Assembly (NCBI GenBank): GCA_963783725.1
Contig: CAWAOJ010000002.1
Span: 1,789,279 to 1,853,278, forward strand
Origin: an uncultured Chloroflexia bacterium
GTDB lineage: Bacteria > Chloroflexota > Limnocylindria > QHBO01
Reading direction: 5' to 3'
Length of the DNA: 64,000 nt
Shown: one piece after another, positions 16,574 to 58,736 of the stretch
Numbering within the stretch: the stretch's first letter is position 1
How the letters are laid out: each line of letters opens with the position of its first letter
Position numbers and translations under genes: made by a program
The notes under the pieces: generated by a model
Told to the model about the DNA's origin: nothing
Databases searched by the model: none
What the model saw: only the letters and a program-made list of their open reading frames with translations

Positions 16574-17647
16574 TCAGCGGGTCTCCGGCAGCCGGAACAG
16601 GATCCGGGTGCCCTCGCCCTGGCGTGATTCGATCTGCAGCTGAGAGCCGAGCAGCTCAGCGCGCTCGCGCATGAACTGCAGCCCGAAATTGCGGCTGGCA
16701 CCGGATGCCAGTCGCATGACGTCGAAGCCGCGGCCGTTGTCGGCGATGGTGAGCTGGTCGCCCTCGAGGCAGATCCTCACCCGCGTCGCCGCGGCATGCT
16801 TCTTCACGTTCCGCAGCGCCTCCTGCACGATGCGCAGGACCGACGCCTTCTGCGACGGATCGAGGTGGTCGTCGATGCGCTCCACCTCCACGTCCACGTT
16901 GATGCCGTGGCGCGCCTCGAACTCGGCGGCCTGGTCGGCGATGGCGCGCGCCAGCCCCACGTCAACCGCGGGCGGGCGCAGCGAGCTGATGAAGCTGCGC
17001 ACCTCGTCCAGGCCGTCGCGCAGCATGGAGCGCAGGAATGCGACCTCCGACCGCGCCTCCGGCGCATCGGTCAGCATGCGGTCGATGTACTCGACCTGGA
17101 AGATCGCGTTGGTGAGCACCTGCGCGGGCCCGTCGTGGACCTCCTCGGCCAGCCGCTGCCGCTCGCCCTCCTGCGCGCCGATGATGCGCAGCTGGAGGGC
17201 GGCCGGCGACTGGTCCGCATCGGTCAGGCTCGGCTCGGGCGCCTGGGGGTCCGGGCTGTCGAGGTAGTTGCCGATCAGCTGCAGCTGGCGGCCGACGACG
17301 TCGAGCCGCTTGAGCTGGTTCTGCAGGGCGCTCAGCTCGCGACCGAGCTGGTCGTGCTCAGTGCGCAGCCCCTGCGTGGCGCTGCTCGTCGCTTCGGTGG
17401 ACGAGCGCTGATCGATCTGCGCGCGGAGGCCCATCCAGGTCGCCAGGCTGTCGCGGTACTGCTCGCGGTACCAGGTGGCCAGCTCCTCCATCCGCATCGC
17501 GGCCGCGCGCACGGTCTCGCTCGCCTGCTCGTACAGGCGCTCGAAGCTGCCGTTCGGACTACTCGTGGTGGGACCCGACACCGCGCGACCTCGCTGAGTA
17601 CTGGGCGCCGGCTGGTACTCGGCGCGCAGAACATGCTCGCGGCGCAT
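16574..17647 (-). CDS. Cytoplasmic NarX/LiaS-type sensor histidine kinase (HisKA_3 + HATPase_c)
   Basis: Starts at MRREHVLRAEYQ (ATG 17647). Coiled-coil region, HisKA_3 (GERQRLAEEVHDGPAQVLTNAIFQVEY), HATPase (DNGRGFD...GLQFMRERAELLGS). The 232 upstream residues in the raw ORF are Arg/Ala-rich with no domain support. No TM segments were recognised. Confidence 0.8.
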   Translation of the reverse strand: MRREHVLRAEYQPAPSTQRGRAVSGPTTSSPNGSFERLYEQASETVRAAAMRMEELATWYREQYRDSLATWMGLRAQIDQRSSTEATSSATQGLRTEHDQLGRELSALQNQLKRLDVVGRQLQLIGNYLDSPDPQAPEPSLTDADQSPAALQLRIIGAQEGERQRLAEEVHDGPAQVLTNAIFQVEYIDRMLTDAPEARSEVAFLRSMLRDGLDEVRSFISSLRPPAVDVGLARAIADQAAEFEARHGINVDVEVERIDDHLDPSQKASVLRIVQEALRNVKKHAAATRVRICLEGDQLTIADNGRGFDVMRLASGASRNFGLQFMRERAELLGSQLQIESRQGEGTRILFRLPETR

Positions 17648-17658
17648 TGTGCCGGCGA

Positions 17659-19299
17659 TCAACAGTACTTCGGGCCCCAAAGGTACCAGTGGCCCAGGAT
17701 CATCGAACCTCGAACACGCGCACGCCAGGAGCCTCGAAGGCGGGCGCGGCCGGAGAGGAACGAGGGATGGTTGCCCTCCGAATCGGTCGCGCTGGCGCCG
17801 TCCCACAGTCCCAGCGGATCTCGCGACTCGCCCGGGTTGAGCGTCACGAGCACCCACCGGATGCCGTAGGCCCTGACGACCCGCGCGACGGTCTGGTACG
17901 GGTCGAACGGCGGCGCCACCCCCGCTCGGCCGGTGAGCAGGTAGAGCCGCGCGGGGTCGTACGAGAGCACGCGGTCGGTGGCAGCCGCGTGCTGGGCCAG
18001 GAATGCGGCGCCGGCCTCGAGCCGCGTCTCCTGCTCGCGCCAGCCGACGAGAAGCGCCGCCGACCCGACCAGCGAGAGCACCACCGCGCCGGCCAGGCCC
18101 GCGACGAGCAGGAAGCGCTGCGCGCCGCGCCCGCCGAGGAAGCGCCAGTATCGGCCCGCCCAGTCGGCGGCCGGTCGCAGCGAGGCCACCGCCAGCGGGA
18201 ACGCGAAGGGCAGCCACGCCCAGGCGGAGTGATAGAAGGCGCCCATCGGTGCGTGGAAGGTGAAGACGAGGACCATGGCGCCGAGCATGACCCAGAAGTA
18301 GGCGAGGAACGGCGCGAGCTCGCGGCGGCGCCGCTCGCGCCACAGCCCGACGGCGAGGAAGACGACGAAGATGCCGCCCATCAGCACGGCGGTGCGTCCG
18401 GTGATCTCACCGAGGGCGACCAGCTTCGACCAGGCGATGGCGGGCAGCCCGGAGGCGAGGTAGCTCGCCGGCGACGGATCGGTGGCGATGGAGAACTGCT
18501 GGTTGTACGAGGTGATCCACAGCGTGTGGCCGCCGGCCGAGGGGAACGCCGAGCCGAAGACGGCGAGGTTGCGGGCGAGCCACGGCCCGACGGCGACGGC
18601 GAATGCCCCGGCGCTCGCCAGTCCCCAGCCGATGCGGGCAGCGCCGTCCCGCCAGCCCGACGCGAGCAGCCATCCGACCAGTGGCGCGACGGCGAGCAGC
18701 AGCCCGTCGACTCGCGCGAGCGTGGCGAGGCCGACCAACAGCCCGGATGCGGCGAGCCATGGACCGGGTCGTGGCGACCGGACGGCGCGGACAGCGGCGA
18801 GAATCGCGGCGGCGCCGGCGGCACCGAAGACGGCGAAGGCATCCACCATCGGCGCGTAGACGAGCATCGGCCCGGCGAAGAGGGCAAGGATGGCGCCCCC
18901 CAGCGCCACCGTGCGGCTCGCCCACAGCTCGCGGCCGACCTGGTAGGTGAGCAGGACGAGGCCCACCGAGAGGACGATCATCGGCGCCTGGCCGGCCAGC
19001 CACGACGGACCGAAGAGGAGCATCGATGCCGCCGCCACGACGGAGGTGAGCGGCATCCAGTGACCGTTCGAGGCGACCGGAAGCGTCGGATCGAGCGGGA
19101 GGCGGCCGCCCACCTCGAGGAAGCTCCACAGCACCGGCGTGCTGAAGCCGTGGCCGGCGGCGAGCTGCTGGGCAACGATGGTGTAGTAGGCGGGATCGGT
19201 GTACGGGGGGTGCCCGACCAGCAGCGCCGCGCCGGTGCGCAGGACGGTCGCCACGATCGCCAGCACGAGCAGATCTCGAACGATCGGGCGATTGCTCAC
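17659..19299 (-). CDS. GT39/ArnT-like polytopic membrane glycosyltransferase (PMT_2-like)
   Basis: GTG start at 19299 (VSNRPIVRDLLVLAIVATVL). Multiple TM helices with the DPAYYTIVAQQLAAGHGFS first loop and RVDGLLLAV motifs typical of PMT_2/ArnT-type large membrane glycosyltransferases. 547 aa. Confidence 0.65.
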   Translation of the reverse strand: MSNRPIVRDLLVLAIVATVLRTGAALLVGHPPYTDPAYYTIVAQQLAAGHGFSTPVLWSFLEVGGRLPLDPTLPVASNGHWMPLTSVVAAASMLLFGPSWLAGQAPMIVLSVGLVLLTYQVGRELWASRTVALGGAILALFAGPMLVYAPMVDAFAVFGAAGAAAILAAVRAVRSPRPGPWLAASGLLVGLATLARVDGLLLAVAPLVGWLLASGWRDGAARIGWGLASAGAFAVAVGPWLARNLAVFGSAFPSAGGHTLWITSYNQQFSIATDPSPASYLASGLPAIAWSKLVALGEITGRTAVLMGGIFVVFLAVGLWRERRRRELAPFLAYFWVMLGAMVLVFTFHAPMGAFYHSAWAWLPFAFPLAVASLRPAADWAGRYWRFLGGRGAQRFLLVAGLAGAVVLSLVGSAALLVGWREQETRLEAGAAFLAQHAAATDRVLSYDPARLYLLTGRAGVAPPFDPYQTVARVVRAYGIRWVLVTLNPGESRDPLGLWDGASATDSEGNHPSFLSGRARLRGSWRARVRGSMILGHWYLWGPKYC

Positions 19300-19329
19300 C
19301 GCCGCAGGGTACCCGGTAGACTCCGCCCG

Positions 19330-20796
19330 ATGTCCGAGCTCGAGCACCCGCGAGCCGTCCCGCGCTGGCTGCCGTCTCCGCTGGTGCTCATGCTCGTCGT
19401 GGCCGCGGTGATCCTCGCGCTGGTCGGGTTGGCGCACGGACTGACCGATGCGGACTACTTCTGGCACCTCACGGCCGGGCGTCTCATTGTCAATTCGGGC
19501 GCGGTCCCGACCGTCGATCCGTTCTCGTTCACCTACGCCGGACAGCCGTGGACGCCGCACGAGTGGCTGGGCGAAGTGCTGATCTACCTCAGCGTGACGG
19601 TGCTGGGGACGACGCTCACGCCCGTGGTCTTCGGTCTTGTCGCCGCGGCCGGCATCTCCGTCGCCGCGTTCACGGCGCAGCGGCTCGGCTCGCGAACCAT
19701 CGCAACCGGTGTCGCGGTCGCCGTCGGGACGCTCGTCGTCATCCCGTACGTCACCGTGCGCCCGCAGACGCTGTCGTGGCTCCTGCTGGCTGCGACTCTC
19801 GCTCTTCCTGCTGTCACTCGATGCCGCGCGACCACGGCGCGCCCTGCTGCTCATCCCGCTGTTCGTCGTGTGGGCAAATCTGCACGGTCTGTACGTCGTC
19901 GGGCTGGGCGTCGTCGTGCTGTACGCGCTGTGGACCCTTGCAGGGCGAACGCCAATGGCCCGCGCGCGCGGCTGGACGATCGCGGCCGCCGGGAGGCGCG
20001 GCGCTCGCGGCGATGGTCACGCCAGCCGGGCCCATGGGCCTGCTCTATCCGCTCCGGTACCTGGAGCCCGGCGACTGGGGCCTGGCCAACATCGTGGAGT
20101 GGCAATCACCCAACTTTCACGATCCCGCGAACATCGGGCTGCTCGATCCTCATCGTCGCACTCGTGGCGTTCGGTACGCGCGGCGTTCCGGGGTGGATGG
20201 CGGTGCTGTGCTGGCTGGGTGTCGTCATGAGCCTGCTCTCCGTCCGCAACGAGCCGATCGCCGCCATCTGGTCACTGCCCGTCATCGCGGCAAACGTCGA
20301 CCGACGCTTCCCCGCCAGCAGACGAAGCGGCGCTGAAATAGCCGCTCGGCGTGTCATGGAAACGGCCGCGGCGCTGGTCGTCGCCGTCGCAGCGATCGTC
20401 ATCATCGGCCCCCGCATCGGAACGCCGGCGCAGGCGCAGGCAGCCGCGAAGCTGCCGGTCATGGGTGTCGATCGACTGCTGCGAAACGGCGGAGCGGAGC
20501 GAGTCTTCGCGGAATACGGCTGGGGCGGGTACGTCATCTCGCGGCTGTACGACAGCGGTGGGCGCGTCTTCGTGGACGGTCGAAACGACATGTATCCGCA
20601 GGCGATCCTGGAGGACTACTCGCGTATCAGGAGCGCGCAGAGCGGTTGGGAGGCGCTGCTGGACCGCTATGGCGCCAGTGCGATCCTTCTGCCGCCCGAT
20701 GCACCCCTGGTCAGCGCGGCGGCTCGCTCAGGCTGGTGCGAGGACCTGCGGGACCAGCGCGAAGTGCTTCTCCTGAGGTGCTCGCCGGCGCAGTAA
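19330..20796 (+). CDS. Uncharacterised polytopic membrane protein, paralog of 41371..42867; at least 2 apparent frameshifts
   Basis: ATG at 19330 (MSELEHPRAVPRWLPSPLVLMLVVAAVILALVGL). Conserved blocks shared with 41371..42867: FTYAGQPWTPHEW, VVWANLHGLY, EYGWGGYVISRLYDSGGRVFVDGRNDMYPQ. The middle of the gene reads only when switching among three frames (ORFs 19637..20230 and 19548..20336). Confidence 0.5.
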   Translation: MSELEHPRAVPRWLPSPLVLMLVVAAVILALVGLAHGLTDADYFWHLTAGRLIVNSGAVPTVDPFSFTYAGQPWTPHEWLGEVLIYLSVTVLGTTLTPVVFGLVAAAGISVAAFTAQRLGSRTIATGVAVAVGTLVVIPYVTVRPQTLSWLLLAATLALPAVTRCRATTARPAAHPAVRRVGKSARSVRRRAGRRRAVRAVDPCRANANGPRARLDDRGRREARRSRRWSRQPGPWACSIRSGTWSPATGAWPTSWSGNHPTFTIPRTSGCSILIVALVAFGTRGVPGWMAVLCWLGVVMSLLSVRNEPIAAIWSLPVIAANVDRRFPASRRSGAEIAARRVMETAAALVVAVAAIVIIGPRIGTPAQAQAAAKLPVMGVDRLLRNGGAERVFAEYGWGGYVISRLYDSGGRVFVDGRNDMYPQAILEDYSRIRSAQSGWEALLDRYGASAILLPPDAPLVSAAARSGWCEDLRDQREVLLLRCSPAQ

Positions 20797-21613
20797 CTGC
20801 ACCTGCTCCGTCGGGGATGCCTCGCCACAGCGCGATGATGCCCACGAGCACGCTCGGTGCCGAGAACCACGGCACCGGAAGCGCCAGGAAACACGCGACG
20901 ATCACGGTCCAGCGCCAACCACGGAGCGCGCCGCCGACCACGATCGCGGCCGCGAGCATGAGTCGCACCCACAGCGGCCAGGTGATGGCAACCGCTGAGG
21001 CGGGAATGGGCACGCTGGAGTTGCGGCGCAGGCTGTCGGCCCACTCGAACCACAGATGCGGGGCCACGGCGAACGAGATGCCGGCGACGACAGCGGTCAT
21101 CGCGATTGCGAGCACCAGCGCCCGCCATTCGCGACGGACCGCAAACCACAGCACGCCGACGCCCGGCGTGACCTTGGTGAGCAGGTTGAACGCCCACGCC
21201 TGCGGGTAGCGGAAGCCGACGACGGCCGCCGCCGCGATCAGCAGGTGCAGGTTTCCGGTGCTGATCTCGTCGGACACCGGCGAACCGGGAAAGAGCAGAA
21301 GGATGACCCCGATGCGCGGGCCCGCCAGCCAGGCCAGCAGCGCCAGGTTCAGCGCCGACCACAAGCCGCGAAACGCCTCCCAGGGGAGGATTCCGAACGG
21401 CGCGAAGAGTTGGGCGAACGCCGGCGAGTACAGGTAGGCGTCGCGGCCGCCCACCGTGCCGCGCTCGTAGAGATGGGCGAAGTCGAAGCGCCAGTAGACG
21501 CGCGCGTCCTGCATGAAATCGCGTTGGTTGAAGTTGAGCCACAGCCAGGCGAACACGAATCCGGCCCAGGCGAGCATCAAGATCCCGGTGCGGAGCAGGC
21601 GCCGCCGCGTCAA
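20711..21613 (-). CDS. DUF2029/GT87-like polytopic glycosyltransferase (subfamily A)
   Basis: 300 aa with about 8 TM helices. Motifs AYLYSPAFAQ, GNLHLLIAAA and WFAVRREWRAL are shared with 47778..48710 and 51080..52099. The C-terminal 40 residues overlap the convergent gene and may be read-through. Confidence 0.6.
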   Translation of the reverse strand: MTRRRLLRTGILMLAWAGFVFAWLWLNFNQRDFMQDARVYWRFDFAHLYERGTVGGRDAYLYSPAFAQLFAPFGILPWEAFRGLWSALNLALLAWLAGPRIGVILLLFPGSPVSDEISTGNLHLLIAAAAVVGFRYPQAWAFNLLTKVTPGVGVLWFAVRREWRALVLAIAMTAVVAGISFAVAPHLWFEWADSLRRNSSVPIPASAVAITWPLWVRLMLAAAIVVGGALRGWRWTVIVACFLALPVPWFSAPSVLVGIIALWRGIPDGAGAVTAPASTSGEALRAGPAGPRTSLSEPPR

Positions 21614-21649
21614 GGGTCACGGCGCGCTCCAGTTCGGGCAGCGAGGCGG

Positions 21650-23876
21650 AGCGCCGATCAGCGACCACGGCCAGGGCTGCGGCCCTGGCAGATCGGTGCC
21701 TGGCGGCGGGTAGCTGCTCAGCGAATCCTCGCGGTACACGTGATCGCGCACCACGCTGAGCTGCTGCGGCCGGCTCGGACGGAGCTCTCCGAGGTAGCCA
21801 GTCAGCGCCGTGTAGCGCGCCTGATCGCAGCCGATCCGCGCGACGGCCTGCAGCGCGTGCAGCGTTGTCAGATCGTAGGGTGTCGCGCGCCTCCGCGGCC
21901 TCAGCCGCGGCCGCGTGCGTCGTCGGCGCGGCCGCGGTCTGCCAGCAGCACCGCGCGCCAGGGCGCGCCCATGTCGGACGAGAGCCGGTTGTCGGCGAGC
22001 GCCAGATCCGACCGTACCGCCGCTGGAAGCAGCGCCGCGCGCGGTCCGATCCGGGTGACGATCGCTTCAACCCGCGACCTCCACCGCCTGTCGCGGGTCC
22101 CCGCGCGGGACCGCGCGTGCGATCAGCTGGCGATCGATGGCAACCGCGATCGCGTACGCATGCGTGGCATCTGCCGTACGCCCCGCTGCAGTCCAGAGCG
22201 CCTGCCCCAGGAGAAGCGAATAACTCGGGTCGAGCACCGTCCGGCGGGCGGCCTCGGTCAGGAGACGGATGCGTTCCGCGCGGACGTTCGTCGGCATTGC
22301 CGGAGCGCGCCCCACGGCCGCGGATCGCCTGGGCTCAGCACGCGCGCCTTCTCGTAGGCGACTGCAGCGCCACCGACGTCGCCGGACTCGACTCGCGCCA
22401 ACCCGAGGCCGAGCCAGTAGCCGGCGTCAGCCGGGTAGGCGTCCGTGGCGGCGCCGAAGCCGGATGCAGCTGCCGTCCAGTCTCCACGCACCGCGGCCTG
22501 CCGCGCCTGATCGGCCGCGAAGCGTGCGCTGTCAATACCGACGACCGACGTGATCACCAGGAGGCCCGCGAGCGCCGAGCGCGGCCGGCATGAGGAGCGC
22601 CGCGAGCTCCCATCAGCCGTCTCGGAACGACGAACCGTTCCTGGAGCCCGGTCATCGGCGCCCGAGTCGGCCACGGCCCAGGCCGCCACCGTCACGACGA
22701 GCACCATCACGGCCGGCAGGGAGCTGAAGTCGTCGAAGCACGACGCCGCCGCGATGCCGACCAGCACGGCCGCCGCTGTGCGGCGGCGTGGATCGGCGAG
22801 ATGCGGTCGGACGGAGGCGGCGAGGACGACCCCGAGTGCGGCGGCTGCCGAGGCGAGGATGAGCCCGCCGTCCGCGATCGTCAGCAACGGGACGCTGTGC
22901 GCGAGCCGCACCTGTAATGGAAAGGTGTAGTCAGGGACCGTCGTCAGTCGAACCCACGAGTAGGTCGAGGGACCACTTCCGGTAATGGGGTGCGCTCGGA
23001 AGATCGCCAACGCCTCACGCCAGATCTCGCCTCGGCCGTCCAGCGCCGAATCGACGACCTGGCCGACGTGGAATGCGACGAAGACAGCAGCTCCGACAGC
23101 GCCGAGGCCGAGCAGCCCCGAGGGCGGGCACAAGCGCGCGTCTTCGCTGCAGCCAGGCGACGACGTTCGCGGGCCGAGGCCCAACCCGAGAAGGCGTCGT
23201 AGGCGACTGCCGCGGCGATCAGGCCGAGCCACCCGGCCCGACCGGCGGAGAGCGGGATCGCGATGGCGGACGCCCCAGCCCAGATCGCGACAAGGATCCG
23301 CCGCCCCGGCCCCGCCGGCTGCCAGCGCAGGAAGGGTATGGCGAGGAGCGAGAGGATCGGGAAGACGTTCGCGGTGCCCCAGATGAAGACCTGGTTCGAT
23401 TCGAGGTTTGGCACCGAGCCGAAGACCGATATCCACGCGATCTTCTCCTGGATCCACCAGACGGCGATCATCACCAACCAGAACACGAGCGCGTAGCTGG
23501 CGGCGACGGCGACGGCGGTGCGCAGTCGCTGGGCGGCGCCGAGGTCGCGCATCGCGAAGAAGGTGAGCGCGTATGCCAGCGCCAGCCCGACCGATTCGAG
23601 CGAACCCTGAACGTCGGCGCTGAACATCGAGACGAGGACCAAGGCGGCCAACCCAGCCAGGATCGCCCAGTCGAGCGCGTTTCGTGGCCCGCGCAGCCTG
23701 AGCGCGGCCCATATGACGAGCGGCGCGACGAACAGGAGCTGCGCCGCGATGCGCAGGGCGGGATAGGTCCCCAGCAGCTCGGAGCCGAAGAATCCGACGA
23801 AGAGCACGGTCCAGAGCTGGAGCGCCAGGACGAGGGCGATCATTCCTCGGCGACGGACGCCGGCAGCGGGGCACAG
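21650..23876 (-). CDS. Wzy_C (O-antigen ligase / PglL-type O-oligosaccharyltransferase-like) membrane protein with C-terminal TPR region; at least 2 apparent frameshifts
   Basis: TM N-terminus from MIALVLALQLWTVLFVGFFGS. Wzy_C core ...SAGRAGWLGLIAAAVAY then (frame switch near 23150) GRGEIWREALAIFRAHPITGSGPSTYSWV...AHSVPLLTIADGGLILAS. TPR-like tail (GDWTAAASGFGAATDAYPADAGYWLGLGLA...), which needs a further frame switch near 22300. The 3' limit is approximate. Confidence 0.55.
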
Positions 23877-23959
23877 GCGAGCTTCACACGCAGGCGGAGA
23901 TCCTCGCCAGCCACCGCCAGCGCCTCGAGCTCGACGCGCTCGCTGCCGTGACGACTCGG

Positions 23960-25700: not shown

Positions 25701-25719
25701 ACGCCAGGCGTTCGCCCAG

Positions 25720-28406: not shown

Positions 28407-28432
28407 GGCTCGCGCCGCCCACGCAGGGCCAC

Positions 28433-49809: not shown

Positions 49810-49817
49810 GCTTCGCG

Positions 49818-50141: not shown

Positions 50142-51053
50142 TCACGACCGCGCCGGTGTGGGCGACTCGCGCGGTCCGCGTATCGCGCTCGGCGGAGGTG
50201 TTCTCAGCGGTACGGCGACCTGCAGATAGGTCACGTCGTACAGGAAGAAGCGCGGCAGCGCCATCGCCACCGTGACCGAGGCCGCGAGCCACGCCCACCG
50301 CGTGCGGCCCAGCCGAAGCGTCACCGCGGCGAGCACCACGACGGCAAGGGCGTACAGCGCCGGCCAGGTGATGAGCAGCCCGGCGAAACCTGCTGAGGTG
50401 ACGTAATTCGACAGGTCGTACAGCAGCATCGGCGCGACCAGGGCCGCGGTGAGCAAGCCGGTCACCACGGCCCTGGCCCACTGGCCTCGGCCGACGTAGA
50501 CGAGAGCCAACAGGATGGGAAATGCCTTGAGGGAGGCGGCGACGGCGATCCACAAGGGTCCGGACCGTCGCTCGACCCCCAGCACCAGCAGCGCAACCAA
50601 CAGCGCGTGGACGTTTCCGTTGGCGCTGATACCAATCAGGATCGGCCAGAAGAAAGCGACCTCGAGCCAAGCCCGACGCTGTACCAGCGGCAGCATGGCG
50701 GCGCAGCTGGCTGCCACGAGAATCGCGGACCACAGCATTCCGGCGATCGTCTGTGGGAGGAACGTGAACGGCAGTGTCAGCCAGGCGAACCACGGCGCGT
50801 ACCGGTACACCTCGGACGATTCGACGTCGGTGACCGGTGGATACAGCGTGCTGCCGTCGCGCAGGCGCTCCGCCGCTGACCAGTACGCGCCAGCGTCTGC
50901 CATGTGCCACTGGGTGAACGCCCAGTACAGGTCAGTGATGCCGATCGCGATCACCACCGCGAGCGCTACGACCCGTGCCAGCCGCCAGATGCGGGGGCTG
51001 ACGGTCCAGGTCGCGAGTCGCTGCTGATGTGCCCGGAACATGGCAGACGCCAC
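50142..51053 (-). CDS. DUF2029/GT87-like polytopic glycosyltransferase (subfamily B)
   Basis: EVYRYAPWFAWLTLPFTFLP, GNVHALLVALLVLGVERRSGPLWIAVAASLKAFPIL. Confidence 0.65.
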   Translation of the reverse strand: MASAMFRAHQQRLATWTVSPRIWRLARVVALAVVIAIGITDLYWAFTQWHMADAGAYWSAAERLRDGSTLYPPVTDVESSEVYRYAPWFAWLTLPFTFLPQTIAGMLWSAILVAASCAAMLPLVQRRAWLEVAFFWPILIGISANGNVHALLVALLVLGVERRSGPLWIAVAASLKAFPILLALVYVGRGQWARAVVTGLLTAALVAPMLLYDLSNYVTSAGFAGLLITWPALYALAVVVLAAVTLRLGRTRWAWLAASVTVAMALPRFFLYDVTYLQVAVPLRTPPPSAIRGPRESPTPARS

Positions 51054-51079: not shown

Positions 51080-52099
51080 TTAGTCCGATCGTCCCAGCGG
51101 GATCGATGGTTTCCCGCTCAGTTGCGCTCGCTTGCGGGCGCGCGCCCGTTGGAGGTCGGACCTCGCCAATGGAATGGAGGCGGCCATCAGGATCGGGCTG
51201 TTGTACCAGATGACTGGCAGCGACAGCCAGATCGCGATCGGGACGAGCCAGCGCCAGTCTCTACGTGCCGCAACGGCGATCAGCAACAGGCCGGCCGGCA
51301 GCCGCACGAGCAGGGAAGCCCATGCCAGCAGCTGGTCGGGATCCGTGGGGACCGGCGGGTTGGAGGCGATCCACCTAGTCCATTCGACCCAGGCGTTCGG
51401 CCCGAGCGCGAACGACACGATCACGACGATGCCCGTGGTCGCCAGTGCAACCGCGAGGCTGCGCCACTCGCGCCGGACCGCGAACCACACGAGGCCGATG
51501 ACCGGTGTCACCTTCGTCAGGACCATGAAGGGCCACACCGCCGGCGCTCGGAATGACACCACCAGACTCGCCGCGAGCAGGACGTGGATGTTCGAGATCA
51601 CCAACTCGTTGAACAGCCCCACGACTGGGATAAGGAGGAGCATTACACCCAGGATCGGACCGACCAGCCACAGCAGCGCGGCGATCTGCGCGAGCGTCCA
51701 GAGCATCGCGAATGCCTCGAATGGCACTCCACCAAGGGACGCGATGGCCTGTGCGAAAGCCGGCGAATATTGGAAGGCCTGGTCGCCTGGGCGTGCGCCA
51801 GGCGTGTACGGCGCGCTCGCGTTTTGGGCCGCGGTCCAATAGACATGCGCATCCACCGCCTCTGCACCGCCTCTGTGGGCATACACGAATGTGGCCAGAA
51901 GCGCCAGGGCCGCAAGCTTCGTCAGCAAGTGAAGGAGGTGGAGTGCGTGCACCAGCCATCGGCGTTCCCTCAATCGAGCGCAGCGATTGCGCGCATCGCC
52001 GATCAAGACGGGAACGGGGTGGGCACGCCACGAACCATCGAGGCGTGACGATAGCACGCGAATCCTTGCCCGCCGTCTGTAATCACAGTCGCGCAGCAT
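51080..52099 (-). CDS. DUF2029/GT87-like polytopic glycosyltransferase (subfamily A)
   Basis: FQYSPAFAQ, SNIHVLLAASL and WFAVRREWRSL motifs. The raw ORF extends to 52228, but the likely start is MLRDCDY. Confidence 0.6.
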   Translation of the reverse strand: MLRDCDYRRRARIRVLSSRLDGSWRAHPVPVLIGDARNRCARLRERRWLVHALHLLHLLTKLAALALLATFVYAHRGGAEAVDAHVYWTAAQNASAPYTPGARPGDQAFQYSPAFAQAIASLGGVPFEAFAMLWTLAQIAALLWLVGPILGVMLLLIPVVGLFNELVISNIHVLLAASLVVSFRAPAVWPFMVLTKVTPVIGLVWFAVRREWRSLAVALATTGIVVIVSFALGPNAWVEWTRWIASNPPVPTDPDQLLAWASLLVRLPAGLLLIAVAARRDWRWLVPIAIWLSLPVIWYNSPILMAASIPLARSDLQRARARKRAQLSGKPSIPLGRSD

Positions 52100-52130
52100 C
52101 TCAAGCGGGCCGCCCGCTACGCTTCCTTCC

Positions 52131-53419
52131 GTGAACCCGAGATCACGCACCGCCGTCCTGGGAGCCGGAGCGCTCGGTCTGACGGCGGCACTCCGACTCG
52201 CCGAGCGCGGCGACCGCGTCACCGTCATAGAGCGCGAGCCGCTTCCCGGTGGGCTCGCAGCCGGCTTCGAGCTGGAACCTGGCGTGTGGCTCGAGAAGTT
52301 CTACCACCACCTCTTTCGCTCTGACACGCGCGCCATCGCGATGATCGACGAGCTTGGCCTGAGCGACAGACTCGAGTGGCATGCGCCGGTGACGGCGACG
52401 CTGTCCGGTGGTGCGCTGCACCAGCTGGACTCACCGATGTCGCTCCTGCGCTTCTCCCCGCTGTCGCCCATCGCTCGGGCGCGGATGGGTATGACGCTCG
52501 CCGTTCTGAAGGCCATGCCGAATGCGCGTCTCATCGAGGGCCGAACGGCGGCGCGCTGGCTCGAACGATGGATGGGGCGGGACGCATACACCACCGTGTG
52601 GGAGCCGTTGCTGCGTGGAAAGTTCGGCACGGCGGCGCCGGAGATTGCGATGCCATGGTTCTGGGCGCGTGTTCACGATCGCACCCAGCAGCTCGGGTAT
52701 CTCCGTGGCGGCTTTCAGCAGCTGTACACGGCGCTCGCCGAGAGGGTCGAGGAGGCGGGCGGCGAGGTTCGTCTCGGCGAGTCGGTGACGAGCATCCGGT
52801 CTCATGCTGGATCCTTGACGAGTGGAGACGACAGCGGGCGCCGAAACGTTCGACAGGGTGGTTTCGACCCTTCCGAACCGCCTCACCGCGCGCCTGGCGC
52901 CGCAGCTGCCCGACGGATGGAGACGGCGGTACGAGTGGGGCAGTGCCTACGGCGCGCACTGCCTGATCCTCGCGCTGGATCGGCCGCTGACATCGGCCTA
53001 TTGGATCAACATGAACGACCCGGGTTACCCGTTCATGGCCCTCGTGGAGCACACGAATTACGTGCCGGCGTCCGACTACGGCGGTCGCCACCTCGTGTAC
53101 CTGGGCAACTACCGACCGATGGACGACCCGCTGCTCTCGGCCTCGAAGGAATCGGTGCTCGGCACGTTCTTGCCGCACCTCGCCGGCCTGAACTCGGCCT
53201 TCGACGCCTCCTGGGTCACGGACTCGTGGATGTTCTCCGCCCCATTCGCCCAGCCGATCGTGACCGTCGACTATCGCGACCACGTCCCGCCATTCACGAC
53301 ACCCGATTCCGGGTCTCTTCCTCGCGAACATGTTCCAGGTGTATCCGCACGACCGGGGGCAGAACTACTCCATCGAGCTTGCGGAACGGCTCGTCCGCCA
53401 CCTCGGTCAGGGAAGATTG
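52131..53419 (+). CDS. FAD/NAD(P)-binding oxidoreductase (amine-oxidase/phytoene-desaturase-like fold); at least 2 apparent frameshifts
   Basis: N-terminal dinucleotide-binding RTAVLGAGALGLTAALRLAERGDRVTVIE. The middle of the gene is in ORF 52822..53625. The C-terminus IPGLFLANMFQVYPHDRGQNYSIELAERLVRHLGQ is back in the first frame and ends 53419. Confidence 0.55.
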
Positions 53420-53577
53420 ACGTCGTAACCGGGCGGTTGGACCTCGATCTTCGGCTGGATCATCGGGCCGCCGATGGGGCCGAGCTGGTAATCGACCAGC
53501 GGCAGCTCGTGTCCGGTCGCTTTCCACGCGACGGCGAGCAGCAGCACGACGAGGACGGCGCCGAACAGGAAGCGCAT
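53408..53577 (-). CDS. Small (56-aa) predicted membrane protein
   Basis: ATG at 53577, MRFLFGAVLVVLLLAVAWKATGHELPLVDYQLGPIGGPMIQPKIEVQPPGYDVNLP, stop at 53408. Below the ORF-track size cut-off. Found by hand translation. Confidence 0.3.
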
Positions 53578-53598
53578 TCCCGCAGACTACGCTCCGAG

Positions 53599-53748
53599 TC
53601 AATCCGCGGCCGGCGGCTCCTCTGATGCGTGCTCGACATCCGCGGGTGTCGTCGTCACCGTGCGGTTCTGGGCTCGCTTGGCGTAGAAGTAGACGAACAC
53701 GAGCATCGCCACGAGAAGAAAGATGATCAGGAAGAATTCGTTCGGCAC
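53599..53748 (-). CDS. Small (49-aa) predicted membrane protein
   Basis: GTG at 53748 preceded by GAGGA. VPNEFFLIIFLLVAMLVFVYFYAKRAQNRTVTTTPADVEHASEEPPAAD. In tandem with the previous small ORF. Confidence 0.3.
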   Translation of the reverse strand: MPNEFFLIIFLLVAMLVFVYFYAKRAQNRTVTTTPADVEHASEEPPAAD

Positions 53749-53853
53749 GATGTGTCCTCGCTTGCCGGCCGCACGGCGTGCGGCTCGCCGCGCATCTATG
53801 GTGCGTGGCCACCGATCGAGATATGACCCATTCGGCCCATGCTGCGACGAGCT

Positions 53854-54600
53854 CTACCCCGCGAGCGCGACCCTCACCCGCGGCGTGAAGAGCAGCGCCA
53901 GCACGTAGAGCACCGCGACCAGCAGCGCCAAAGCCTGGTAGCCGGTGATCAGTGCCAGGTACTCGAGCAGGCCACCCACCATGGCGCCCAGCAGGTTCGC
54001 GGCGAAGCCGAGGTTCGAGGTGTCCACGTCGCGGAAGCGCTGCGCAAAGACGAGGTTCGCCGCGAAGATCGGCGTGAAGTAGACGAGGACCGCCGCCAGC
54101 AGCCGAGGCCCGAACGAAAGCCCCAGCAGCGCGTGCGGCGGGATGAGGAAGCCCACGATGACCGCCGCCACGAGCAGCGCGTAGAGGACGGTCGGCCGCG
54201 GCAGGCGGGTCCGTCGCACCACCTCGATGGCGGCCAGGACCGAGAGCAGCACGCCGCCGAACACCAGCGCGTTGACGAACCAGGTCGTGCCGAACAGCAG
54301 CGCGAACTGGACGACGCTCTTCGTCTCGAGCAGCAGGAACGCGGCTCCCATGAAGAACAGGTCCGTGTACCGGCGCATGCCGCCGGAAGGGTCCGCCCGC
54401 GCTGCGCACCAGCACCAGCGAGGCGAGCAGGATCAGCGCGATCGCGACGCAGGTACAGCGTGTGGGATCCCGCGGTCGCGCAGGTACGGGAAGGGGTAGT
54501 CGTCGGCGACGCGGGCGCGGGGGCGTCGCGGCCACGTGCGGTGGGTGCACGCCGCAGCTGACCGCATCGGGCTCGAGGCCGATGGTGAGGACCGCCATGT
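53854..54600 (-). CDS. Polytopic membrane protein (TM bundle resembling the N-terminal repeat of the SpdS-like membrane proteins); apparent frameshift near 54385
   Basis: ORF 53854..54378 (MRRYTDLFFMGAAFLLLETKSVVQFALLFGTTWFVNALVFGGVLLSVLAAIEVV...) is preceded in another frame by ...CVAIALILLASLVLVRSAGGPFRR. Either a separate gene or the C-terminal part of the upstream SpdS-like gene. Confidence 0.4.
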
Positions 54601-54639
54601 GGCGCACGGTCCCGACGCTGTCGACGCACGGCGCATGGC

Positions 54640-55869
54640 CGAAGGCGGCCGCCAGCGTCGCCGACGTACCGATCGAGCAGCCACGACTCCCGGTAGTAGT
54701 TGTACATGGCGAACGCGCCGCCGGGCTTCAGGTGCCGCCGAGCGCTGTCCATCGCCTCGCGCGTGAACAGGTAGCTCTCCAGTCGCAGCGACGACTGGCC
54801 CTGCACCAGCGTCAGCGAATCGGGCAGCGCGAAGAGGATGAGGTCGTACTTCGCATCGGTCTGCTCAAGGAAGGCACGGCCGTCGTTGATGTGCACGCTG
54901 ACGCGCGGGTCCTGGTACGGCTCGTCGGGATGCAGCTGCTGCCCAAGCTGGTACAGGCGCGGGTCGATCTCGACCGCGTCGACGTGCTTCGCGCCCTGCG
55001 GCAAGCGCGATGGCGACGTCGGTGCCGCTGCCCGCCCCGACGATCAGCATGTCGTCCAGCGCGGACGCCGCTGGCGCCGCTGGTACGGGATGAAGTAGAC
55101 CGGCGACTTCTTGCGCCGCTCGGCCACGGAGTGCATCGCTGATGTGGGATGCCGTTGACGTCGAGCTCGTAGGTGCCGCGTTCCGCCGGCACCGGCGTCG
55201 ACTGACACCTTGTAGTACGGCGACCAGCTGTAGTTGGGGACGATCGTCTCGCGCGCCAGCATGAAGACCAGCGCCGACGACCGCCGCGACCTGGAGCACC
55301 CGCCAGCCCCGCCGCTGAAGCAGCAGGAAGAGGATGCCGACGACCGTCCCCCACGCGACCGGCGGCGCCCACAGGAACGACAGCAGCGAGAACGCGCCGA
55401 TCCCCAGCACGCTGCCGGTGATGTCGAGCCGGTACGCGTCGAGCGGCTCGAACTCCACGAACGTCCGCGCCACGCCCTCGCCGATCATCGCCATCACCGA
55501 CGCCACCGCCAGGAAGATGACCGGGAGCGTGATCCAGGTCGGCAGGCCGCTGGGCGTGAAGGTGCCGAAGTAGATGATGTCGCTGCCGCTGCGGTCGATC
55601 TGGACGGGGAAGACGAGCACGAAGCCGACGAGCAGGGCCAGCACGACCGGCGCCCAGCGGAACGTGTCGTGCCTCGCCCGCCCGCGCAGGAAGCCGACCC
55701 CGATACCCAGGAAGCTCCCGAGCAGCACGAAGTTCGAGAAGTACGACAGGTAGACGACGTTCGACCCCAGCCACCGGATCAGTGCCAGCTCCACGAACAG
55801 CATCGAGGAAGCTGAGCAGCACCAGCCGCAGGCGGGGGTCCATCGCGGCGGATGGTACGGCATGGCCAC
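54640..55869 (-). CDS. Membrane-anchored spermidine-synthase-like protein (TM domain + aminopropyltransferase-like domain); apparent frameshift near 55040
   Basis: ORF 54865..55869 has the TM bundle (MLFVELALIRWLGSNVVYLSYFSNFVLLGSFLGIGVGF...) ending in the SAM-binding MLIVGAGSGTDVAIALAAG. It continues in ORF 53949..55004 (AKHVDAVEIDPRLYQLGQ...INDGRAFL...YDLILFALPDS...GGAFAMYNYY). Similar to the C-terminal domain of 36102..38363. Confidence 0.55.
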
Positions 55870-56064
55870 GCACGGGAGCGGTCGCGACCGTATCGGTCCG
55901 ATTCCGACCCCTTAACTCGGCGACCGACCGCCGCGACCCTCTTACGGGTCCCCTGACGACCCGGTAACGCCCAACCAGGCCACCCGCGCGCCGTTAAGGG
56001 GTCGTCGTCGGACCCTTACCGCCTGCGCCCAGCGAACCCCCCCGGCTGTGCGGCCGGCCGCCGC

Positions 56065-56835
56065 TCACCCGTGCGCGGCGGCGTTGGCCTTGATCGCGTC
56101 GTGGAGGTACTGCGCCAGCCCCGGGGCGATCTTCTCGTAGGTTGCCGTGAAGCGCGGATCGGCCAGGTACATCTCGGCCAGGCCGACGTGCATCTCGTAC
56201 GAGCACGGGTAGAACGCGTCGTCGATCTGCTTCCGATGCGCCTCGGCGCCGGCCATCGCCTCCGCGCTGTCCGCGGGCTTTCCCGACCGCATGGCCGACA
56301 CGACCTGCGCGATCGCCGCCTCGCCCTGCGCCTTGATGCGCTGCCAGTCCGCCTTGGTGTACTGCGACGCGCGCCGGGCTGACTCGCGGTACGCATCGGT
56401 CTCGCCCCAGCGCTCCTCGACCTCGGCCGCGTGCTGGTCGGGGTCGAAATCGCCGAACACCTCGAGGCGCTCCTCCGGCGTCAGATTGATTCCCATGCTG
56501 TCTGCCTCCATTGCCTTCTCGACGGCCGCGCTCATCCGCTCCAGCCGACCGATGCGGTCGCGCAGCATTGCGTGCTGGCGCCGCAGATGACCGATGCGGT
56601 TCGTGCCGCCGTCGTTCAACACGCTCTTGATCTCGTCCAGGCCGAACCCGAGCTCCCGGTAGAAGAGGATCTGCTGCAGCCGATCCAGATCGGCGTCGCC
56701 GTAGCGCCGGTAGCCGGCGTCACTCCGCGCCCCTGCGTGCAGCAGCCCGATCTCGTCGTAGTGGTGCAGCGTCCGGACGGTGACGCCCGAGAGCCGCGCC
56801 ACCTCGCCGACCGTGAGCCCCTCGGTTCGTGCCAT
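56065..56835 (-). CDS. MerR-family transcriptional regulator with TipAS-like C-terminal domain (TipAL/Mta type)
   Basis: LTVGEVARLSGVTVRTLHHYDEIGLL MerR HTH, coiled-coil, then a TipAS-like antibiotic-binding domain. Confidence 0.8.
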   Translation of the reverse strand: MARTEGLTVGEVARLSGVTVRTLHHYDEIGLLHAGARSDAGYRRYGDADLDRLQQILFYRELGFGLDEIKSVLNDGGTNRIGHLRRQHAMLRDRIGRLERMSAAVEKAMEADSMGINLTPEERLEVFGDFDPDQHAAEVEERWGETDAYRESARRASQYTKADWQRIKAQGEAAIAQVVSAMRSGKPADSAEAMAGAEAHRKQIDDAFYPCSYEMHVGLAEMYLADPRFTATYEKIAPGLAQYLHDAIKANAAAHG

Positions 56836-56887
56836 GCCGCGCACCATAGACCCTCACGTTACGTCAGAGTCAAGGGCGGCCAGCTCG

Positions 56888-57280
56888 CTAAGGCCCGCTC
56901 CCACCGCCGACGAGCCGCCATGCTCCATCCGCCTGCTGCTTCAGGCTGTAGAACCAGGTGTTGTCGCCTTGGTTCATCGACTCGTCCGCGCCGCTGACCG
57001 TCAGCGTCGTCATGAACGTCAGCTCGCCGGGATCGAACCGAACCGGTTCGCCCTCGACCCTCGTGGCCAACACGCGGACCTGCCCACAAAGGTCGCCGTT
57101 GGAACTCGTCATCGATTCAGACGCGAGCGCGTGGGCGGTCGTGCAATCTCCGGCGCGCAGAGCGGCGAGGTACGCGTCGAGGACTTCCCGGGCGGGAGCC
57201 TCAGGTCTTGGAAGCGCTGCGGGAGTGCAGGCCACCAGGACCACTGTGAGCACACCGAGACACCAGGCCGTCGATCTCAC
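56888..57280 (-). CDS. Putative lipoprotein, hypothetical
   Basis: Signal peptide with lipobox LVAC. 130 aa. No recognised domain. Confidence 0.45.
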   Translation of the reverse strand: MRSTAWCLGVLTVVLVACTPAALPRPEAPAREVLDAYLAALRAGDCTTAHALASESMTSSNGDLCGQVRVLATRVEGEPVRFDPGELTFMTTLTVSGADESMNQGDNTWFYSLKQQADGAWRLVGGGSGP

Positions 57281-57410
57281 CGTACGTTGCTCCCTCGGCC
57301 CGTCGCTTTCGCTCGAGCGTGACGTTCGACGCTCCCTGTGTCAACGCATGGACGAGATAAAACTCGCCGAACTTTGACTGGCGGACCGCTTTGGCATCCA
57401 AAGCGCTACG

Positions 57411-58736
57411 ATGCCGGCCATGACCCCCGCTCGCTCGCCCGGCCGCTCCTCGCCCGATCACGAGGGCGCCATCGGCAGCGCGGCCTACCACCGTCACCGG
57501 CGCACGCATCGGTCCAGGGGACACGACCGGCCGCGCATCCTGCAGCTGCTCGCCACCGGGGGAACCGGCGGCGCCCAGGAGAGCTACACCGGGCTGCTGC
57601 TGCACCTCGATCGCGAGAAGTACGACGTCCGGGCGCTGTCGCTCTCTTCGGGCAACGCCGTCTCGCGTCTGGGACGTCTGGGCGTGCCGGTGGACGTCAT
57701 CGACGAGGCCGATGACGAGGCCGCCGTCCGCGAGCTGGCCGCGTACCTGCGCCGCGAGGAGATCGACCTCGTCCACGCGCACATGTACCGCGCCGAGGTG
57801 ATCGGGACGCGGGCCGCGGTCGCGGCCGGGACGCCGGTGATCGTGGCGACCGTGCACTCGTCGCGCGTCCGCTCCGCGGAGGACGTCGAAACGCTGGCGG
57901 CACTGACGCCGCAGATCGACCGGCTGATCGTGCCCTCGGAGAGCATCCGCGCCAAGGTCGAGCGCGAGGGGCGGGCGGGCGCGGAGTTCGCGGTGATCCC
58001 CAACGGCATCGACCTGTCGCGCTTCTCGCTGCCGACGCCGCGCTGCTCGCTGCGCTCCGACTTCGCCATCCCCGCGGATGCGTTGCTGGCAGGAGTCGTG
58101 GCGCGGCTGGAGCCGGAGAAGGGGCACGCCTACCTGATCGACGCCTGGCCTGCGGTCGTCGCCGCCGTCCCCGACGCCTGGCTGGCGATCGTGGGCGAGG
58201 GCTCGCAGTGCGCCGCCCTGAAGGCCCGGGCGCGGGCGCTCGGCGGCCGCGCGGCCGCGCAGGTCGTCTTCACCGGCCGCCGCGAGGATGTCAGCGCGCT
58301 GACGCGCGACCTCGACATCGCGGTCCTGCCCAGCCTGCGCGAGGCGCAGGGCATCTCGATCCTGGAGGCCATGGCGCGCTCGCGCCCGGTGGTCGCCTCC
58401 GCAGTCGGCGGCATCCCCGAGGTCATCACCGACGGCGTGGACGGGCTGCTCGTTCCTCCGGCGTCCGCATCGGGCTTGGCCGATGCGATCGTGCGCCTGG
58501 CGAACTCGCCGGCACTGCGCGCCGAACTGGGCGCTGCCGGGCGCCGAACGGTCGAGGACCGCTTCAGCCTGACCGCGATGGTGCGCCGGGTCGAGCAGAC
58601 GTACGACGAGGACCTGCTGCGCGCCGGCGCGCTCCCCCCGACGCGCCCGGCGCGCGTCGCGTCGCGCCGCTCACGGGCGGCGGGCTCAGCCCGCGGACCG
58701 CGCCGCGCTCGAGGTGCCGCCCGTCTGAGACGCTAG
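57411..58736 (+). CDS. GT4 family glycosyltransferase (glycosyl transferase group 1)
   Basis: ILQLLATGGTGGAQESY N-terminal GT-B domain. C-terminal E..E motif region (LPSLREAQGISILEAMARSRPVVASAVGGIPEVI). The first about 40 residues of the raw ORF are Arg/His-rich, so the true start is probably near 57530. Confidence 0.75.
   Translation: MPAMTPARSPGRSSPDHEGAIGSAAYHRHRRTHRSRGHDRPRILQLLATGGTGGAQESYTGLLLHLDREKYDVRALSLSSGNAVSRLGRLGVPVDVIDEADDEAAVRELAAYLRREEIDLVHAHMYRAEVIGTRAAVAAGTPVIVATVHSSRVRSAEDVETLAALTPQIDRLIVPSESIRAKVEREGRAGAEFAVIPNGIDLSRFSLPTPRCSLRSDFAIPADALLAGVVARLEPEKGHAYLIDAWPAVVAAVPDAWLAIVGEGSQCAALKARARALGGRAAAQVVFTGRREDVSALTRDLDIAVLPSLREAQGISILEAMARSRPVVASAVGGIPEVITDGVDGLLVPPASASGLADAIVRLANSPALRAELGAAGRRTVEDRFSLTAMVRRVEQTYDEDLLRAGALPPTRPARVASRRSRAAGSARGPRRARGAARLRR

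Follow-up and report, generated by a model that had tools for sequence, protein, structure and literature searches.

A glycosyltransferase-rich island beside a Tad/Flp pilus locus of a Limnocylindria bacterium, with a possible role in extracytoplasmic pilin glycosylation

We analysed a 64-kb stretch of DNA (the window; guanine-plus-cytosine (GC) content about 68%) from an uncultured Chloroflexia soil bacterium of the class Limnocylindria (GenBank assembly GCA_963783725.1, contig CAWAOJ010000002.1) and found that a dense run of glycan-assembly genes, here called the island, occupies about 17.6-55.9 kb according to Pfam (~38 kb), next to the genes of a Tad/Flp pilus. Our results suggest that the island may be an extracytoplasmic glycosylation system attached to the pilus locus and directed at the Flp pilin, a proposal that takes its link to the pilin from gene neighbourhood and to which we give roughly even chances. 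The gene content, the protein folds, conserved acidic residues of catalytic type and, in two phyla, gene linkage to flp and tad were all observed directly. The mechanism is of a known kind; what is new is the enzyme family, the pilin partner and the scale of the expansion of GT-C-type membrane glycosyltransferases.

Genes were called with a codon-usage Viterbi path over the six reading frames, used since shadow open reading frames (ORFs) were abundant, and families were assigned by searching every candidate frame with the Pfam and NCBIfam profiles. Twelve GT-C-type membrane enzymes were supported: seven short GT87 proteins and one remote relative of them, two PMT_2-like proteins and two members of a family of ~500 amino acids (aa), the 498 family. 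An initial annotation of this DNA, made from the letters alone, had counted higher. Its nine or more GT87-like proteins kept their family (PF09594, with the PimE fold) and were reduced in number to eight, and its three members of an uncharacterised polytopic family became two, at 19321-20796 (+ strand) and 41371-42867 (- strand), here called 498A and 498B. The fold evidence obtained for the two main families agreed with its view that the polytopic proteins are glycosyltransferases, and ruled out that they are permeases.

The protein 498B is the founding member here of a Pfam-less, flp-linked family, annotated in databases solely as 'hypothetical protein'. Its partner 498A has internal frameshifts and was recognised by BLAST pairing with 498B (26% identity), by an hhalign probability of 100% against the family profile (A3) and by its alternative frames 19637-20230 and 19842-20336, which matched orthologs with 40-80% identity; the ORF 17647-20796 (+), initially taken as one gene, proved to be a chance-open frame over two divergent genes. 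No Pfam entry matched the 498 family even at E<=1, and its profile found no sequence match in the PDB. The NCBIfam model archaeo_STT3 gave 21 bits against a cutoff of 450, so membership of STT3/AglB/PglB did not hold at the sequence level. A structural model of the family (predicted local distance difference test score, pLDDT, 93.2) showed a GT-C fold with a C-terminal extracytoplasmic domain, and Foldseek searches with it retrieved DPY19 at 7e-9 and also STT3, AglB, ArnT and PglB. Two aspartates, D31 and D33, which make up a DxD after the first transmembrane (TM) helix in the motif L-I-D-G-D-V-W-W-H, were invariant in 56 sequences of the family, and the polytopic GT-C core together with this acidic motif in external loop 1 placed the family in the GT-C superfamily. 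According to the model, the 498 family consists of GT-C-type glycosyltransferases with an STT3/DPY19/ArnT-like fold. The four best structural neighbours were all protein glycosyltransferases, which lends weak but consistent support to the action on the Flp pilin proposed below. The family differs from AglB/STT3/PglB, DPY19, PMT and ArnT in lacking significant sequence similarity to them and in being smaller (about 500 aa).

The four or five PMT_2/ArnT/GT39-like proteins of the initial annotation came down to two, of which one passed the PF13231 cutoff of 26.1 bits. This protein (17659-19305, -; 548 aa, about 8-11 TM helices) scored 33.4 bits, and its orthologs (50-71% identity) stood beside the 498 family in 13 of 22 Limnocylindria loci. 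The other (34564-36084, -; 506 aa, about 9 TM helices) scored 24.5 bits, just under the cutoff. Neither had a sequence match in NCBIfam or the PDB.

Seven paralogs of ~300 aa formed one BLAST family (A1), all related to PF09594, and five of them passed its gathering cutoff of 25 bits: those at 20711-21613 (-, 300 aa, 56 bits), 38364-39272 (+, 302 aa, 25.4 bits), 40520-41386 (-, 288 aa, 31.3 bits), 47778-48710 (-, 39.1 bits) and 51080-52108 (-, 44.5 bits). The protein of 50142-51053 (-) fell below it with 22.8 bits, and the gene at 42864-43767 (-), broken by an extra G at 43382, was identified as a BLAST paralog with both fragments matching the hidden Markov model of the family. The remote relative (46928-47788, -, 286 aa) was detected by hhalign with 90% probability over its N-terminal 80 residues; it forms with 47778-48710 a gene pair that was kept in four loci of relatives (L082, L084, L091 and L093).

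The short GT87 proteins, of 288-342 aa, align to the 237-position profile from its first position to about position 205 and do not show the full-length architecture of 415-430 aa. More than 2000 relatives of 260-320 aa, largely from Limnocylindria and named 'glycosyltransferase family 87 protein' at NCBI, belong to this subfamily. Its profile matched the structure of PimE (9dm5) with an E value of 2.6e-4, followed by GPI mannosyltransferase I; an AlphaFold model (pLDDT 92.7) also retrieved PimE first with Foldseek (E 1e-4, TM-score 0.54), then GPI mannosyltransferase I and PIG-U. The aspartate of the first loop was invariant across 75 sequences. On the strength of the modelled fold, we consider that the short GT87 proteins are GT-C-type glycosyltransferases. 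Mycobacterial PimE was thus the best match of the eight short proteins in sequence and fold, with the loop-1 Asp and a Lys-Pro motif kept; the proteins described here are shorter (about 300 aa against about 415-430 aa), lack the C-terminal part and share 18% identity with it, and no phosphatidylinositol-mannoside genes were seen in the window. We also noted in L082 (ERZ25039533 contig_40789, 19608-20870 and beyond) an 818-aa protein with a PMT_2-like N-terminal part and a short GT87 C-terminal domain, so that two GT-C modules encoded separately in the window are naturally fused in this relative.

To compare gene order, we used loci fetched around relatives of the 498 family, 22 of them from Limnocylindria and 61 from distant relatives (27-34% identity). 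The Limnocylindria order was 498A (reading leftwards), 498B (reading rightwards), PMT_2, histidine kinase, response regulator, flp and the tad genes. It was seen in all five loci that reach far enough (L083, L084, L086, L091 and L093), two more (L085 and L096) ending at the kinase, and the succession of PMT_2, kinase, regulator and flp was kept in L083, L086, L091 and L093. In L084 the flp gene has a 498-family gene on one side and a short GT87 gene on the other, directly adjacent and in one orientation. In the window, 498A is 4 kb from flp, with the PMT_2 gene, the kinase and the regulator in between.

The members of the distant branch that bear a name at NCBI are Terriglobales (Acidobacteriota). 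In GCA_009772295.1 the order was a divergent GT87 gene (416 aa), a gene for a 293-aa protein, a Pfam-less GT-C gene (484 aa), two flp genes, RcpC, secretin, TadZ, CpaF, TadB, TadC and DUF192; the 293-aa gene upstream of the Terriglobales GT-C had no detectable relation to the short GT87 family. Of the 48 distant loci with 500 bp or more of downstream sequence, 26 had a co-oriented flp gene no further than 2.5 kb downstream. CpaF was present in 12 of the 14 with at least 7 kb downstream, and a gene for a GT87 protein of PimE size lay upstream in 11 of the 27 with at least 2.5 kb on that side. The linkage spans two distinct Flp sequence types and two phyla, and adjacency to the pilin gene in the same orientation was met in Terriglobales-type loci and in L084. 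By our estimate, about 1% of random genes would have a tad locus within 10 kb. We favour the pilin over other targets because the core GT-C genes are linked to flp and tad in both phyla. The initial annotation had put forward two candidate targets, a lipoglycan-like polymer of the envelope and the glycosylation of S-layer or pilin; this linkage speaks for the pilin, and the polymer is kept as a rival.

The left flank of the island, initially read as merely regulatory, is a complete Tad/Flp pilus locus with a two-component system, all of it on the - strand and recognised by Pfam. The genes encode a DUF192 protein (4426-4767), a TadG-like protein (4795-6585), TadE (6585-7142), a histidine kinase (7210-8193) and a response regulator (about 8821-9441) belonging to the tad block, TadC (9443-10399), TadB (10603-11517), the CpaF ATPase (11379-12749), a TadZ-like REC+ParA protein (12851-14179), RcpC/CpaB (14204-14884) and the Flp pilin (15093-15434), so that Flp, CpaF, TadB, TadC, TadZ, RcpC and the TadE/G pseudopilins are all present. 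CpaF was 95% identical to its L083 counterpart and 56% identical to that of the Terriglobales locus L165. The stretch from the pilin gene to the island is taken up by a REC-GerE response regulator (15801-16574) and a HisKA_3 kinase (16574-17581), the latter adjoining the PMT_2-like gene. Neither a prepilin peptidase gene nor a secretin was found within the 64-kb window, the lack of a secretin being consistent with a monoderm envelope. As a separate observation, the DUF192 gene comes after a tadC or tadG-like gene both in the window and in Terriglobales tad operons (L165 19713-20102), with relatives in 10 distant loci (36-39% identity), and it appears to be a conserved unnamed component of tad loci.

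The pilin gene itself matched Flp_Fap with an E value of 2e-6 and 27.8 bits, under the cutoff of 32.2, and a motif scan revealed the Flp cleavage motif G/QTLVEY, cleavage after the G giving the mature N-terminus QTLVEYGLLLALIAIIVIVALIFLGPIVSRIFQNVGTSLQ. It was 52-78% identical to the flp genes of L083, L084, L086, L091 and L093. The ORF runs about 50 codons beyond the stop point of four relatives (15150-15260, -), and a nucleotide alignment placed a TAA one base out of frame near the expected stop (CAA GAC G TAA), so the probable cause of the overrun is a 1-nt insertion here rather than a pilin that is truly longer. The exposed C-terminal dozen residues of Flp include Ser and Thr.

Taken as a pilin-directed system, the island could work as follows. 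On the cytoplasmic face, the GT2 enzyme of 46158-46931 would load a monosaccharide onto polyprenyl phosphate, and in a parallel line the PglF/DegT/PglC-like proteins, three GT2 enzymes and three methyltransferases would build an oligosaccharide on polyprenyl diphosphate. Wzx would move the oligosaccharide across the membrane, and a UPF0104 protein is proposed to do the same for the lipid-linked monosaccharide. On the outer face, the GT-C enzymes would use the lipid-linked donors: the core of 498A, 498B and PMT_2 may glycosylate Flp on the few C-terminal residues that it exposes, most plausibly on Ser/Thr, the eight PimE-like enzymes may extend or branch the chain, and the Wzy_C-TPR protein may polymerise or transfer the Wzx-dependent glycan. 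The acceptor, the sugars, the order of the steps and the action of all modules on one product are what we infer in this scheme.

The GT2 gene at 46158-46931 (+) encodes a protein of the polyprenyl-phosphate-sugar synthase type (DPM1/GtrB/PpgS-like; Glycos_transf_2, 72 bits), whose nearest relatives come from metagenome-assembled genomes of Candidatus Limnocylindrales, Limnocylindria and Chloroflexia (76-82% aa identity). It adjoins a UPF0104/LPG_synthase_TM membrane protein (45091-46119, -), split over frames, in two of which PF03706 matched with profile positions 33-141 and 145-302, so that the pairing of a Ppm-synthase-like GT2 with a UPF0104 partner described initially was upheld. That mannose is the sugar was an assumption of the initial annotation; in NCBIfam the best models for the GT2 were PpgS, AglJ and Dol-P-hexose transferase, all scoring below their cutoffs, and the single best match was polyprenyl-P-GalNAc synthase, far under its cutoff. 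We regard the UPF0104 protein as a candidate flippase for the lipid-linked sugar because its pairing with the GT2 is kept in more than 24 Limnocylindria genomes.

Judged by analogy, the closest functional counterpart of the proposed system is TfpW, a GT-C-type pilin arabinosyltransferase of Pseudomonas aeruginosa group IV strains whose gene lies next to pilA and which modifies a type IVa pilin from polyprenyl-P-arabinose (bioRxiv 10.1101/2020.04.19.049825). Common to both are a GT-C gene beside a pilin gene and extracytoplasmic pilin glycosylation, read here from the genes. TfpW receives its donor from separate cytoplasmic enzymes and a small flippase, and both attaches and extends the glycan. 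Its pilin is of type IVa, with a globular head, and belongs to a proteobacterium, whereas here the pilin would be a Flp (type IVc) of ~40 residues from Chloroflexota and Acidobacteriota, and the enzymes a Pfam-less family with many extra GT-C proteins; the likeness proposed is one of function. The three-component systems GtrA/GtrB/GtrC, CsbB/GtcA/YfhO and ArnC/ArnEF/ArnT likewise combine a GT2 polyprenyl-P-sugar synthase, a flippase candidate and outer GT-C transferases; in the window, however, the flippase candidate is UPF0104 (MprF-flippase-like) and not GtrA/GtcA, and a dozen or more GT-C enzymes would depend on one synthase.

Several points weigh against the pilin as the target. The link to it is one of gene neighbourhood, and it is limited to the core genes (498A, 498B, PMT_2 and some GT87). 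In the window 498B is 26 kb from flp, about 22 of the 48 distant loci have no flp downstream, and the loci are not phylogenetically independent, some being near-identical (L147/L149 and L152/L161, for example). The mature pilin exposes about 12 residues, which leaves little room for a large glycan, and the low-GC, non-syntenic Wzx/Wzy cassette of the island may make an unrelated polymer. The Tad pilus of Caulobacter showed no glycan density by cryo-electron microscopy (PMC10710030), which means that not all Flp pilins are glycosylated.

The island may alternatively make a surface glycopolymer and share no more than its location or its regulation with the pilus. A lipoglycan like the mycobacterial lipomannan/lipoarabinomannan (LM/LAM), a glycan of the S-layer or the wall, and an adhesive polysaccharide of the holdfast kind are candidates, and the GT-C enzymes would then extend a lipid- or wall-anchored chain instead of acting on the pilin. 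PimE, the solved GT87 match, acts on a glycolipid; Wzx, Wzy_C and PglC are the standard layout for a heteropolysaccharide; the number of GT-C enzymes, at least a dozen, fits a polymer of some length or branching better than the decoration of a 40-residue pilin; and related islands also hold PAP2, GDPD and further Wzy_C-TPR genes. Such a polymer leaves unexplained, however, why a Pfam-less GT-C gene comes first in the Terriglobales flp-tad operon and why L084 has its flp flanked by GT-C genes. The structures that the 498 family matched best were those of protein, not lipid, glycosyltransferases, and lipid-anchor genes of the PimA/PimB type were not seen in the window. We find a surface polymer plausible for much of the island, and possible, if on the unlikely side, as the explanation of the whole.

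The initial annotation held that the system matched none already described, and this agreed with the literature searched on Limnocylindria, GT87, Flp/Tad glycosylation and TfpW, in which no description of such a system was found; within the publications searched on Flp/Tad glycosylation, no glycosyltransferase for a Flp or Tad pilin is named. A review of type IV pili from 2026 speaks of glycosylation for type IVa pilins alone, and one from 2019 brings up Flp glycosylation as speculation only.

The genes of a Wzx/Wzy-type assembly lie between the core GT-C genes. The Wzy_C-TPR membrane protein (21617-23845, -) is split over several frames and was recognised on 22258-23265, where Wzy_C scored 32.7 bits (cutoff 31.7) and TPR_16 27.8 bits (cutoff 32.7); these domains would suit a role as polymerase, as ligase or as O-oligosaccharyltransferase, and comparable proteins of 493 and 772 aa are encoded in L082. 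It is followed on the same strand by a PglF-like 4,6-dehydratase in at least three frames (about 23840-25726; Polysacc_synt_2 positions 1-30, 57-98 and 98-291 in three frames), a PglC-like phosphoglycosyl transferase (about 25730-26344; Bac_transf, 130 bits), a DegT aminotransferase in two frames (26370-27501; DegT positions 2-193 and 193-359) and, according to Pfam, a methyltransferase (27663-28274). The Wzx flippase (28433-30007, +; Polysacc_synt_3, 60 bits) comes next, and Pfam recognised after it a methyltransferase (30004-30690, +), three GT2 enzymes (30787-31722, -; 31689-32693, +; 32549-33697, +) and another methyltransferase (33622-34395, +). A phosphoglycosyl transferase, a Wzx and a Wzy-type protein, as used in Wzx/Wzy-dependent assembly, are therefore all present. 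Parts of the bacillosamine-initiated, en-bloc O-glycosylation of pilins by the pgl and PilO/PglL systems of Neisseria and Campylobacter have likenesses here (PglC/PglF/DegT-like proteins, a Wzx-type flippase and a Wzy_C protein); the Wzy_C protein of the window bears TPR repeats, however, an acetyltransferase was not found, and the cassette is not syntenic in relatives.

The stretch of Wzx, GT2, methyltransferase, PMT_2 and MFS-spermidine-synthase genes at 28-40 kb has a GC content of 62-65%, against 67-72% on both sides. The Wzx/GT2/methyltransferase cassette had no counterpart in the islands of relatives and is probably an acquired, variable module. The low-GC stretch (28000-40000) falls between 498A and 498B, which are separated by about 20 kb in the window and adjacent in relatives, an arrangement consistent with a horizontally acquired insertion. 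Checked in relatives, the whole 41 kb of the initial annotation did not recur as a conserved unit; sub-modules alone did, namely GT87/106-aa/HTTM-DCC, the amine oxidase, the pair of 286-aa and short GT87 genes and the fused spermidine-synthase-like gene. A scan of a genome collection seeded with the GT2 of 46158-46931 yielded 80 loci in which the sole conserved unit was the GT2-UPF0104 pair, with no short GT87 gene within 10 kb of it in any.

These data bear on the idea that the island is a mosaic of independent systems, made up of a pilus-linked GT-C core, an acquired O-antigen-like Wzx/Wzy cassette, a general module for decoration with lipid-linked monosaccharides (GT2, UPF0104 and GT-C enzymes, as in GtrB/GtrC or CsbB/YfhO) and unrelated genes. 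The drop in GC content, the recurrence of sub-modules in differing combinations, the occurrence of GT2-UPF0104 elsewhere in Limnocylindria away from short GT87 genes, and the regulator and DUF4864 genes that set a GT4 gene apart all agree with it. The modules are nevertheless packed with minimal intergenic space, and short GT87, 498, PMT_2, spermidine-synthase-like, HTTM-DCC and amine oxidase genes co-occur in L082, L084, L091 and L095. As a full account we hold the mosaic to be improbable; for the core it overlaps with the pilin-directed system, with which it is compatible, and in part it is true.

Two further polytopic proteins are probable GT-C candidates. The first (39269-40462, +; 397 aa) belongs to a large unnamed family of 2121 representative clusters at E<=1e-3; it had no match in Pfam, NCBIfam or PDB sequences, and when its profile was compared with those of the two GT-C families the probability was 1-2%. 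Among 60 of its relatives there were three weak PMT_2 matches, one GT87 and one TMEM260-like match. The second, of ~447 aa with about 10 TM helices, was recognised by translation (43751-45094, -; in-frame TGA at 44444-44446); it had no Pfam match, reached an hhalign probability of 12% against the short GT87 proteins and is possibly GT87-like.

Pfam confirmed the remaining genes of the initial annotation as it did the cassette: four GT2, one GT4, three methyltransferases, Wzx, the PglC/PglF/DegT trio, the Wzy_C-TPR protein, the HTTM-DCC fusion and two spermidine-synthase-like proteins. The first of the latter (36102-38363, +; 753 aa, Spermine_synth and MFS_1) is a fusion with an MFS-like part and scored 79 bits with NF037959 'fused MFS/spermidine synthase' (cutoff 40). 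The second (53854-55869, -; ~670 aa, Spermine_synth on 53949-55043) is also a membrane protein and is broken into several frames, the fragments aligning in order to one 673-aa gene of L084 with 56-80% identity. Such fusions of a membrane part with a spermidine-synthase-like part recur in GT-C islands, with both genes of the window, L084 151-2172 and L091 3071-4969 as examples. The spermidine-synthase fold binds substrates of the S-adenosylmethionine type, a property that would point to a membrane-associated substrate receiving an aminopropyl or methyl group.

The HTTM+DCC1 fusion (48661-49890, -, Pfam) has as a conserved neighbour a 106-aa protein with a single TM helix and two Cys (49818-50138, -). 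HTTM is a vitamin-K-carboxylase-like membrane domain and DCC1 a thiol-disulfide oxidoreductase. The trio formed with the short GT87 gene 50142-51053 was also found in L082, with identities of 45%, 42% and 64% for HTTM-DCC, the 106-aa protein and GT87, respectively, and the 106-aa and HTTM-DCC genes of L095 adjoin a 498-family gene. The 106-aa protein always precedes HTTM-DCC and the pair always adjoins a GT-C gene (window 48661-50138; L082 10876-12353; L095 6619-8081). An FAD amine oxidase-like gene (52131-53625, +; Amino_oxidase, 76.9 bits), split over two frames, was 61-70% identical to proteins of L082, L091 and L092. Between it and the second spermidine-synthase-like gene, two short ORFs (53407-53853, -; about 59 and 84 aa) have one hydrophobic segment each and a strong coding bias, and neither matched any family.

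At the right end, the glycan run is dense as first described and not uninterrupted to 58736: the amine oxidase and, by Pfam, a MerR/TipAS regulator (56065-56847, -) and a DUF4864 gene (56888-57232, -) come before the GT4 gene (57411-58736, +), and the functional border is nearer 55.9 kb. The MerR/TipAS, DUF4864 and GT4 genes have no syntenic counterparts in the islands of relatives, save for a weak similarity of GT4 in L084 (31%), and the membership of 56065-58736 in the island is doubtful. Just downstream of the MerR/TipAS gene, the intergenic region contains a 27-nt inverted repeat (55890-56019; 81% complementary, 76-nt spacer) that may be a terminator. The other repeats of the window were paralog-level similarity and short matches; none marked the boundary of a mobile element, and tRNA and Rfam scans of the window gave no match.

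The Viterbi path switched frame inside many genes, and Pfam confirms these switches as real disruptions within this sequence. Split genes were those for PglF, DegT, PglC, Wzy, UPF0104, the amine oxidase, the second spermidine-synthase-like protein, the GT-C of 19321-20796 and the GT87 of 42864-43767. These splits in at least nine genes, together with an internal TGA, could be taken to mean that the island is a decaying, non-functional pseudogene cluster. Within the island and beyond it alike, however, the frame is disrupted about every 3-4 kb, and the flanking tad genes are likewise broken; the codon bias remains strong across the breaks, and orthologs are intact in relatives. A contig from an independent short-read assembly (L001, 5,854 bp, run ERR11718636) was 99.85% identical to window 37673-43527, with 8 substitutions and 1 indel across 5.85 kb. 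The one frameshift that could be checked against it, the extra G at 43382, was absent there and the GT87-like gene 42864-43767 was intact. Runs of at least four bases occurred at 3 of 18 predicted frame-switch points, against a background of 24%, and were thus not enriched. Exact-protein look-ups for more independent contigs with the GT2 and the HTTM-DCC gene gave no match, differing start codons being the probable cause, and a short GT87 protein of the window, looked up through its copy in the database, gave none either. Because the tad genes are also broken and the checked break was absent from L001, we consider assembly error or strain-level noise a more likely origin of the breaks than decay, which we judge very improbable. 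Gene calls made on this record will come out fragmented.

Class Limnocylindria has genomes with a median size of 2.39 Mb and a GC content of 68.9% (PMC10608941). An island of this size would mean that these abundant uncultured bacteria of soil and lakes, with genomes of about 2.3 Mb, spend nearly 2% of their DNA on extracytoplasmic glycosylation. Two groups of 'hypothetical protein', the 498 family and the short GT87 proteins of ~300 aa, can now be assigned a fold and a likely activity.

Tad/Flp pili are widespread organelles of adhesion and colonisation and, to our knowledge, Flp pilins are generally treated as unmodified. We may tentatively extend the pilin-directed reading to a phylum-spanning Flp glycosylation, a rather doubtful possibility in which a 498-type GT-C enzyme at the head of the tad operon in Acidobacteriota and Chloroflexota would prime the ~40-residue pilin, the PimE-like enzymes of Limnocylindria would build a long mannan-like chain, and the Tad pili would be sheathed in glycan. 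In any event, gene neighbourhood nominates an unnamed family with thousands of members as a Flp glycosyltransferase, and its occurrence in Terriglobales, an order with cultured members, would make the proposal testable if a cultured strain carries the operon.

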